A DNA stretch of 64,000 nt, taken from the NCBI GenBank assembly GCA_951406725.2, contig OX597838.1:8308001-8372000 (forward strand). Reading direction: 5' to 3'. Under the pieces are notes generated by a model. The model did no database searches. It had not been told where the DNA came from and worked only from the letters and a program-made list of their open reading frames with translations. Position numbers and translations under genes: made by a program. Source of the DNA: Octopus vulgaris (taxonomy: Eukaryota). Numbering within the stretch: position 1 is the first letter of the stretch; the number at the start of each line of letters is the position of its first letter. Shown one piece after another: positions 23,537 through 24,621 of this stretch.

Positions 23537-23753
23537 CTATATACTTACATATATAAATATATATATATATATATATATATATATATATATATATATATAT
23601 ATATATATATATATATATATTAATTAACAATTGAGGATAAAATCTTTAAAAGACATTATCAGTAGTCAGCGTGAAAAACCTCGTAAGAGAAAAAATCCGT
23701 AAATTCTTCCTCTTTGAAGAGTTTGTAATGTTATGTTTTTTCTTATATCTCTT

Positions 23754-23830
23754 GAGTTTGTTGCACTGACGAACATGAAATGCATATTCTGCATTAAATG
23801 CGAAATCACATGTGATATGTAACTGAATTC
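23754..23830 (+). ncRNA. Type I hammerhead ribozyme, copy 1
   Basis: Stem I GAGTTTGTTGCA/TGTAACTGAATTC; core CTGACGA (23766-23772); stem II aCAT-AATGCA/TGCATT-ATGc; GAAA (23802-23805); palindromic stem III ATCACATGTGAT; AUA triplet, predicted cut after 23817. Confidence 0.78.
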
Positions 23831-24250
23831 TTTTTTAAAATGATGTGTTTTGAAGTTTTGCATTCGGTAATATTTTGTTTATTTTTAGTAGTTTTCACCG
23901 CATTGGTCCCTCTTAGCGTGTTGGTATCTACTAATAGTAGTACCCTCATTATAATATAAATGAATATTTTCAAAGAGGAAGAATTTACGGATTTTTTCTC
24001 TTACGAGGTTTTTCACGCTGACTACTGATAATGTCTTTTAAAGATTTTATCCTCAATTATTAATTTATATTTTTCACCGGAATAGTTCAATGCTGAATTT
24101 TTATTCCGACTAGGCAATTTGTAACCGAAATGCATTGCGAAAAAGCCCGCCATTTTCATAGATATGTAAGGATAAACATTCGTACATGCTACGATGAATT
24201 CTACGGTTGGCTATCGAGTATGTAATGTCATGTTTTTTCTTATATCTCTT

Positions 24251-24327
24251 GAGTTTGTTGCACTGACGAACATGAAATGCATATTCTGCATTAAATGCGA
24301 AATCACATGTGATATGTAACTGAATTC
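24251..24327 (+). ncRNA. Type I hammerhead ribozyme, copy 2
   Basis: Identical to copy 1; CTGACGA 24263-24269, GAAA 24299-24302, predicted cut after 24314. Confidence 0.78.
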
Positions 24328-24621
24328 TTTTTTAAAATGATGTGGTTTGAAGTTTTGCATTCGGTAATATTTTGTTTATTTTTAGTAGTTTTGACCGCAT
24401 TGGTCCCTCTTAGCGTGTTGGTATCTACTAATAGTAGTACCCTCATTATAATATATATATATATATATATATATATATATATATATATATATATATATAT
24501 ATATATATATATACATATACATATACACACACACACACACACATATATATATATATATATATATATATATATATATATATATGTATGTATGTGTACGCAC
24601 ATAAGCACACACACTTACATC

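Follow-up and report, generated by a model that had tools for sequence, protein, structure and literature searches.

A non-LTR retrozyme of Octopus vulgaris, likely copied into (TA)n tracts from a probably circular RNA by a Penelope-like element

We found an insertion of a non-LTR retrozyme at positions 23621–24455 of a 64,000-nt stretch of Octopus vulgaris DNA (the window). The insertion was likely copied into a (TA)n tract by the RT/endonuclease of a Neptune-type Penelope-like element (PLE), using two internal priming sites on an RNA that was probably circular; we give this reading a probability of about 60%. The evidence comes from the anatomy of the insertion, from the ends and junctions of 167 distinct insertions of the same family, and from resident PLEs of the same genome.

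Architecture of the element and its family

The element consists of 1.5 tandem turns of an ORF-less 497-nt unit joined to an inverted arm, and is not built as LTR-body-LTR. Its features, in positions of the window, are as follows.

23538–23620, no strand: left (TA)n target tract
23621–23718, minus strand: inverted arm, a copy of unit positions 251–352 (unit position 1 = 23719), with its outer end at fixed site B (the long end)
23719–24455, plus strand: direct arm, which covers the 497-nt unit about 1.5 times, with its 5' truncation at unit position 1 and its terminus at fixed site A (the short end)
23754–23830, plus strand: type I hammerhead 1, with core CUGACGA at 23766–23772, A·C at 10.1/11.1, stem III at 23805–23816 and a predicted cut after A23817
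23818–24314, plus strand: predicted cut-to-cut monomer, 497 nt, 31.8% GC, ORF-less, circular fold z = -4.5
23940–23967, plus strand: internal copy of end site A, a helix ending ACCCUC followed by an AU-rich stretch
23959–24063, plus strand: "tail" of about 105 nt between sites A and B
24045–24070, plus strand: internal copy of end site B, a hairpin ending AUCCUC followed by an AU-rich stretch predicted to be single-stranded
24251–24327, plus strand: type I hammerhead 2, identical to hammerhead 1, with a predicted cut after A24314
24456–24590, no strand: right (TA)n/(CA)n tract

The first-pass annotation had described two direct repeats of about 240 bp with identical type I hammerheads, an inverted arm bracketing the first repeat and (TA)n on both sides of the element, and all of these were recovered in the window sequence. 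The direct repeats run from 23719 to 23967 and from 24216 to 24464 with a spacing of 497 and are 97% identical over 249 nt, four of the differences falling within the first 240 nt and the remaining three within the AT-rich end; they are the overlap of tandem turns, not terminal repeats. The inverted arms (23617–23718 and 23969–24070) are 98% complementary over 102 nt. The hammerhead cores lie at 23766 and 24263 and the palindrome at 23805 and 24302, and H17 of the two motifs is A23817 and A24314, which agrees with the cut sites predicted before, 497 nt apart. The longest ATG ORF of the unit, which was also read as a circle, is 41 aa on the plus strand and 49 aa on the minus strand, in line with the earlier description of the element as ORF-less. 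A hairpin at 24075–24108 holds a B-box-like 9-mer (consensus GTTCRANNC); it is missing from the sister family described below and is perhaps there by chance. Pol III transcription of the whole unit is considered unlikely because the unit contains 15 runs of four or more T. Elsewhere in the window, a minus-strand fragment at 22409–22930 has a 173-aa stop-free frame, which we take to be part of a Tc1/mariner transposase.

The genome searched for further copies comprised 2.8 Gb in 227 contigs. The exact hammerhead 24-mer gave 380 matches genome-wide (control 0) and a degenerate 21-mer that includes an older subfamily gave 737 (control 1), rather than the single genomic copy that would have spoken against the first-pass annotation. 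Exact patterns for the region before the first end site matched 672 plus 40 times, and a DNA search, of whose 1722 candidates 40 were scored, returned near-complete copies of 95–99% identity. About 69 distinct loci were counted by hand on contig C1, from which we extrapolate an estimated genome total of roughly 850. The 199 sequence stretches analysed correspond to 167 distinct insertions of these perhaps 850 loci, a few of which (L150 twice, L202/L213) still go back to local or segmental duplications. Every sampled copy consists of pieces of one 497-nt unit, permuted or in tandem: 59 of the 238 segments (L001–L176) are longer than one turn and 6 longer than two, the longest reaching 1215 nt (2.4 turns). 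Altogether 36 distinct cut-to-cut monomers were extracted, 32 of this family and 4 of a sister family (L108, L220–L239). The sister family has a 480-nt unit with 352 matches and is 66–68% identical to this family. Its loop III has 3 nt, it uses the same two ends at a distance of about 125 nt, and the matches listed include up to four consecutive hammerhead motifs. The family in the window is thus dispersed, protein-less, hammerhead-bearing, mobile and young, and resides in (TA)n tracts. The earlier characterization of the element as young, TA-targeting and retrozyme-like is supported.

The hammerhead and the class of the element

At minimum free energy, 23754–23830 folds into a type I hammerhead whose stem I (12 bp) is bulged and whose stem III has 4 bp; A and C stand opposite each other at 10.1/11.1, and the folding energy is not unusual (z = -0.70). 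A search with the Rfam hammerhead models, as proposed in the first-pass annotation, came back empty, with zero matches at E <= 1 over 3.1 kb or at E <= 10 over 201 nt. A loose hammerhead descriptor gave three matches in the window, namely both hammerheads and a poor one in a simple repeat at 22116, and none in the reversed window. The motif alone is weak evidence, and the better-than-chance case rests on the family data. Across copies, the minor-allele fraction of eleven core positions is 0.6% versus 3.4% elsewhere, whereas N7 varies freely, with C in 74 copies, T in 79 and A in 17. Of 170 copies aligned at position 10.1, 150 have A and 20 have G; at position 11.1, 180 of 181 have C. Copies with the G-C form at these positions belong to the older subfamily (about 80–87% identical), and in the sister family, which shows three compensatory changes in stem I, the two positions are U·U; this largely answers the caveat that had been attached to the A·C opposition. 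Stem covariation, whose absence would also have counted against the earlier reading, was seen when 12 monomers were aligned and folded as circles: 25 of 141 consensus pairs change on both sides versus 1–6 for slid controls, a result that is supportive and not calibrated because it draws on three lineages only and on a structure derived from the same alignment. The structural covariation extends round the whole unit, and the circular MFE of the monomer is low against 30 shuffles (z = -4.5).

Loop III is CAGG in the older subfamily and 3 nt long in the sister family, with the 4-bp stem III kept in both. Since the palindrome is lost in both while stem III is kept, a dimer is possible but probably not required, and the idea that the hammerhead has to act as a palindromic dimer found no support. 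Taken together, the hammerhead looks real and is predicted to be self-cutting. Stem I has a probability of about 0.2 in the predicted circle versus about 0.8 in the local fold; as a prediction only, such a weak stem I would protect the circle from re-cutting. The family provides a natural A10.1·C11.1 hammerhead that has spread to hundreds of copies and is missed by Rfam.

The element is a non-LTR retrozyme, a known class, present in hundreds of copies, with cleavage and circle predicted from sequence. It carries one type I hammerhead per tandem unit with at least two in succession, is short, low in GC, non-coding and multi-copy, and has a highly self-paired monomer under structural selection, as judged by covariation from three lineages. 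Metazoan non-LTR retrozymes have been described from coral, mussel and axolotl (Cervera & de la Peña 2020; PMC7229834), and the element resembles them in its type I hammerhead per short tandem unit, low GC, absence of ORFs, highly self-paired predicted circle and co-occurrence with PLEs. The U·U at the stem II base of the sister family is likewise present in the axolotl hammerhead, which has modest activity (PMC7229834). On the other hand, the unit is 497 nt long versus 150–450 nt in those retrozymes, and copies are dispersed partial tandems of at most 2.4 turns versus arrays of up to 62-mers; strict (TA)n targeting without a visible TSD also sets the octopus element apart, as do the two fixed internal ends used one of each, which the text consulted of PMC7229834 does not describe. 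Expression of circles has been demonstrated for the retrozymes of that study, whereas the element here is known from genome sequence and its circle is predicted. With vertebrate retrozymes (Li, Clavereau & Pollet; bioRxiv 10.64898/2026.07.22.740005) it shares two consecutive complete hammerheads and a proposed PLE dependence, and its 497-nt unit falls in their range of 51–972 bp. In that preprint, cleavage was obtained in only one of nine retrozyme dimers assayed (Li et al. 2026), and the PLE link consists of co-occurrence and pLTR homology, 24 of 57 Xenopus families matching a known TE; the link presented here, in contrast, is an insertion footprint with no homology to four PLE families.

The insertions also resemble those of EN+ PLEs of the Neptune/Naiad type (Craig et al. 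2021; PMC11167929) in 5' truncation, partial tandems, an inverted 5' arm, a tail at one end, (TA)n targeting and two internal start sites. They differ from them in having no RT or GIY-YIG ORF, in a tail of about 105 nt versus 30–50 and in a hammerhead that is canonical where theirs is minimal. An autonomous EN+ PLE was rejected, there being no ORF in the unit and no linked ORF in the sampled loci, and so was the dimer-dependent minimal PLE hammerhead (PMC4209133), on account of the 4-bp stem III and the loss of the palindrome in the older subfamily and the sister family. Plant LTR retrozymes (PMC7229834, PMC6765202) are similarly non-autonomous and have a monomer bounded by two hammerheads; this class was dismissed on the type I rather than type III hammerhead, the lack of true LTRs and of any 4-bp TSD visible in the (TA)n flanks, and the permuted tandems with ragged 5' ends. 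A two-polarity viroid-like replicon was rejected as well, since the descriptor found no hammerhead on the minus strand of the 497-nt circle, where other ribozyme classes were checked through Rfam only. A survey of the literature on retrozymes, octopus hammerheads, Penelope twin priming and cephalopod PLEs yielded no description of this family or of a two-end rule for retrozymes; its coverage of subscription papers, supplements and repeat databases was slight, and the family may already be catalogued.

Insertion ends and the resident Penelope-like elements

Two sites account for nearly all 3' ends of the copies: A, near unit position 240, and B, near 345. They lie 105 nt apart and 140 and 245 nt past the cut site; copies do not terminate at the cut site itself. 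Each of the two comes after a helix ending CCUC that is followed by an AU-rich stretch. Among 238 distinct segments, 107 end at A, 107 at B and 24 elsewhere. The 167 distinct insertions comprise 70 single-arm copies (40 A, 29 B and 1 other), 95 head-to-head insertions and 2 others. The head-to-head insertions include 78 AB, one BB and no AA pairs and 16 with one end elsewhere, that is, one A and one B end in 78 of the 79 insertions with both ends at fixed sites; those of the sister family are AB in 7/7 cases. The patterns by which loci were found lie inside both arm types if these are long enough, and we saw no reason for same-end pairs to be excluded; very short B-only copies are under-sampled. 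Remnants of the opposite end were detected beside only 4 of 49 single-arm copies. No TSD is visible, and the (TA)n flanks would hide any. The 5' truncation rate is highest at unit positions 430–440 (window about 24148–24158; 8 stops, 15.9 per 1000 passes), at the foot of a predicted long hairpin.

PLE fragments beside some copies led to four PLE families, all of which end in (TA)n. A GC-rich PLE (L189–L196; G000:C10:97.80-97.83 Mb and others) has a 6.2-kb unit in tandem with an 884-aa ORF, a single end type in 8 loci and a minimal hammerhead variant whose core has C replacing U4; it is very young, 95 matches being fully identical over 187 aa. Of three AT-richer families, two have ORFs of 750–850 aa and one was seen as broken copies only. 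The two intact-ORF families (L243–L259, 753 aa; L260–L306, 801–851 aa) are about 59% identical to each other, and their tails and that of the third family are 50 nt long with a common CCACGTG motif. The end of the 753-aa family has 696 matches. This PLE has two ends about 50 nt apart, and long/short pairs were observed in 20 of 22 head-to-head insertions, the other 2 being uninformative, with no same-end pair. The GIY-YIG and Neptune labels of the resident PLEs are putative and reflect our reading of motifs, including the Cys linker of Craig et al. 2021; Pfam gave only a weak RVT_1 match for the one PLE protein scanned.

The element thus works like a PLE substrate, with one short and one long end from two internal sites, although its tail is about 105 nt long versus about 50 nt in the resident PLEs. 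A tail of 30–40 bp, usually at one PLE end only, was reported by Craig et al. 2021, and the tail was placed between two internal RT start sites in vitro by Frangieh et al. 2024 (PMC11167929), according to whom the PLE protein, a predicted dimer, cuts and extends both target strands in vitro. The first-pass annotation had called the element a parasite of a PLE and proposed a search for an RT/GIY-YIG partner sharing its pLTR. The Penelope-type insertion anatomy is in keeping with the first part of this proposal; a pLTR-sharing partner was not found among the four PLE families and one end-sharing family. The four PLE families have no sequence in common with the element, and the GC-rich 6.2-kb PLE and the three AT-richer families were rejected as partners with no link to it. 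The family sharing the B end was set aside with no PLE ORF upstream in 20 loci, and two site-A matches 3 kb apart proved to be a local duplication without a PLE ORF. In this B-end family, which is older (L307–L326; up to about 550 nt shared), the last 110–130 nt are ~66% like the A–B tail of the element, and a complete hammerhead near the match is present in only 1 of 20 loci, on the opposite strand.

The template and the proposed mechanism

No indel within 3 nt of the cut site was found in 189 segments crossing it, versus 251 of 6175 control windows (4.1%). Unit positions 96–101 show 4 5' stops, equivalent to 8.6 per 1000 passes against a mean of 4.1, with positions 101–120 equally high, and no specific pile-up of 5' ends at the cut site was seen in 119 segments chosen independently of the ribozyme. 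Copies starting at 97–100 were not counted, as they were partly found by a pattern beginning there and several have TA microhomology. Cleavage in vivo thus leaves no direct footprint, there being no stop excess at the cut site, and, given the read-through of this site without junction indels, the usual template is unlikely to have been a cleaved, unligated monomer. Divergence between tandem units is 1.3% within a locus versus 2.3% between loci (70 loci), and the units of a locus agree at 1075 of 1103 polymorphic sites, where random pairing would give about 305 mismatches; inverted arms agree at 956 of 974 such sites, with about 261 mismatches expected at random. Locus-private variants are common to both tandem units in 12 cases in 9/53 loci (chance about 0.14) and to both inverted arms in 5 cases in 4/61 loci (chance about 0.05). 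Shared private variants and seamless junctions are the trace expected if both arms were copied from one and the same circular molecule, a scenario they fit without proving it. Gene conversion or local duplication could also have produced shared private variants, and a succession of subfamilies could make common sites agree. On this sequence evidence, we consider that the template was probably circular RNA.

The strongest competitor, to which we give a clearly smaller but real chance, is PLE two-site insertion from the uncleaved linear read-through transcript of a tandem locus, with hammerhead activity rare or later and units homogenised by gene conversion or local duplication. Cut-site read-through and seamless junctions are what it predicts, PLE hammerhead mutants still insert unimpaired in vitro (PMC11167929), arrays are short, with a maximum of 1215 nt, and the RNA signal is low. 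However, private variants are shared by tandem units and by inverted arms at comparable rates, truncation would erode the tandems unless they were regenerated from one unit, and the catalytic core is kept across lineages 67% identical, which implies that cleavage matters for spread. The same permuted tandems and shared private variants would arise if the template were a cleaved but unligated linear monomer and the RT, on reaching the 5' end, jumped back to the 3' end of that molecule. End-to-end jumps of R2-type RTs often gain or lose bases. With no junction indels in the 189 crossings and no stop excess at the cut site, such jumping appears improbable.

Slightly less probable still is that the copies are 3'-end fragments, in the form of tandem pLTRs, of an autonomous PLE outside the sample and not a separate family. 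The insertion anatomy is that of a PLE, and the sample covers 167 of perhaps 850 loci; yet no sampled copy continues into shared upstream sequence or a PLE ORF, and lengths of up to 2.4 turns are reached instead. When the 5' flanks of 62 single-arm copies were compared, matches reaching the junction were limited to 2 pairs, at differing positions in the unit, and in 31 loci with at least 4.5–5 kb of upstream sequence PLE matches are scattered at differing distances and orientations. The 4-bp stem III, as opposed to the minimal motif of the co-resident GC-rich PLE, and the covarying structure round the entire unit likewise argue against such fragments. As to the inverted arms, 34 of 76 two-piece AB insertions have two arms each of which covers sequence missing from the other, indicating that both arms were primed separately and excluding fold-back as their general source. 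Counted modulo 497, the 5' ends of the two arms lie no more than 10 nt apart in 20 of the 76 (5000 permutations gave a mean of 3.8 and at most 12); joining by fold-back could produce this, as could a meeting of two polymerases on the same template. A snap-back model like that put forward for rotifer Penelope, in which the first cDNA primes itself and a single target end is used, would account for these coincidences, and PMC3846280 interprets such palindromic junctions as self-priming; as the origin of the arms it is very unlikely, in view of the 34 insertions and because it leaves unexplained why the outer ends are almost never the same site, but it may still apply to the joining of some junctions.

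Four public runs were searched as assembled contigs, of which one showed nothing and one a single contig. In two runs that we guess to be RNA, the element is shallow (depth tens to hundreds versus hundreds to thousands for a neighbouring mariner-like repeat), and relative to that repeat it is less deep there than in DNA runs. Circles would escape poly-A selection, and the joined form exists in DNA too. The putative RNA runs lend no support to abundant expression of the family.

In the preferred reading of PLE-mediated insertion from a circle, a copy with two hammerheads would be transcribed, probably by read-through, both hammerheads would cut, and the 497-nt monomer would be ligated, as in other members of the class. 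The PLE protein would then cut both (TA)n strands, one end priming at B and the other at A, 105 nt upstream; we infer priming at these sites from the two fixed ends and the one-of-each rule. Each cDNA would extend in the 5' direction across the cut junction and could make up to 2.4 turns, the read-through and the lengths being observed, and the two truncated cDNAs would be joined head to head or one arm lost, as the observed anatomy suggests. In the window, this would have joined a 102-nt B arm to an A arm that is 1.5 turns long. More tentatively, we speculate that retrozyme circles are insertion templates for a PLE RT dimer whose active sites sit in fixed register 105 nt apart on one circle, each primed by one (TA)n end and running through the religated junction; a shared signal of hairpin, CCU and AU-rich stretch could let unrelated hammerhead circles use the same enzyme without pLTR homology.

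The discussion of PMC7229834 hypothesised that retrozymes return to genomes as circles primed by target DNA, with PLEs as candidate helpers, and Li et al. 2026 (bioRxiv 10.64898/2026.07.22.740005) treat the insertion mechanism as still open. The new contribution here is population-scale genomic evidence on how retrozymes insert: a countable footprint connects a retrozyme with the two-start-site mechanism of PLEs, and the retrozyme and a co-resident PLE alike pair one end of each kind instead of drawing ends at random. For in vitro work, the family is a short, non-coding substrate whose presumed start sites are mapped, and its genome also encodes candidate enzymes that are young and intact; an assay of this kind exists for a lizard PLE (PMC11167929).

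The (TA)n tracts flanking the sampled copies hold many further, apparently unrelated type I hammerhead families (L043, L035, L062, L067, L069, L094, L124, L010, L159, L160, L002, L192, L201), and the genome seems to hold a community of retrozymes. A strict hammerhead scan overlooks the element's own hammerhead and hence is not a census. The family in L043 has a 535-nt unit in three copies, and several of the flanking families end in a hairpin, CCCT and an AT-rich stretch, resembling sites A and B.
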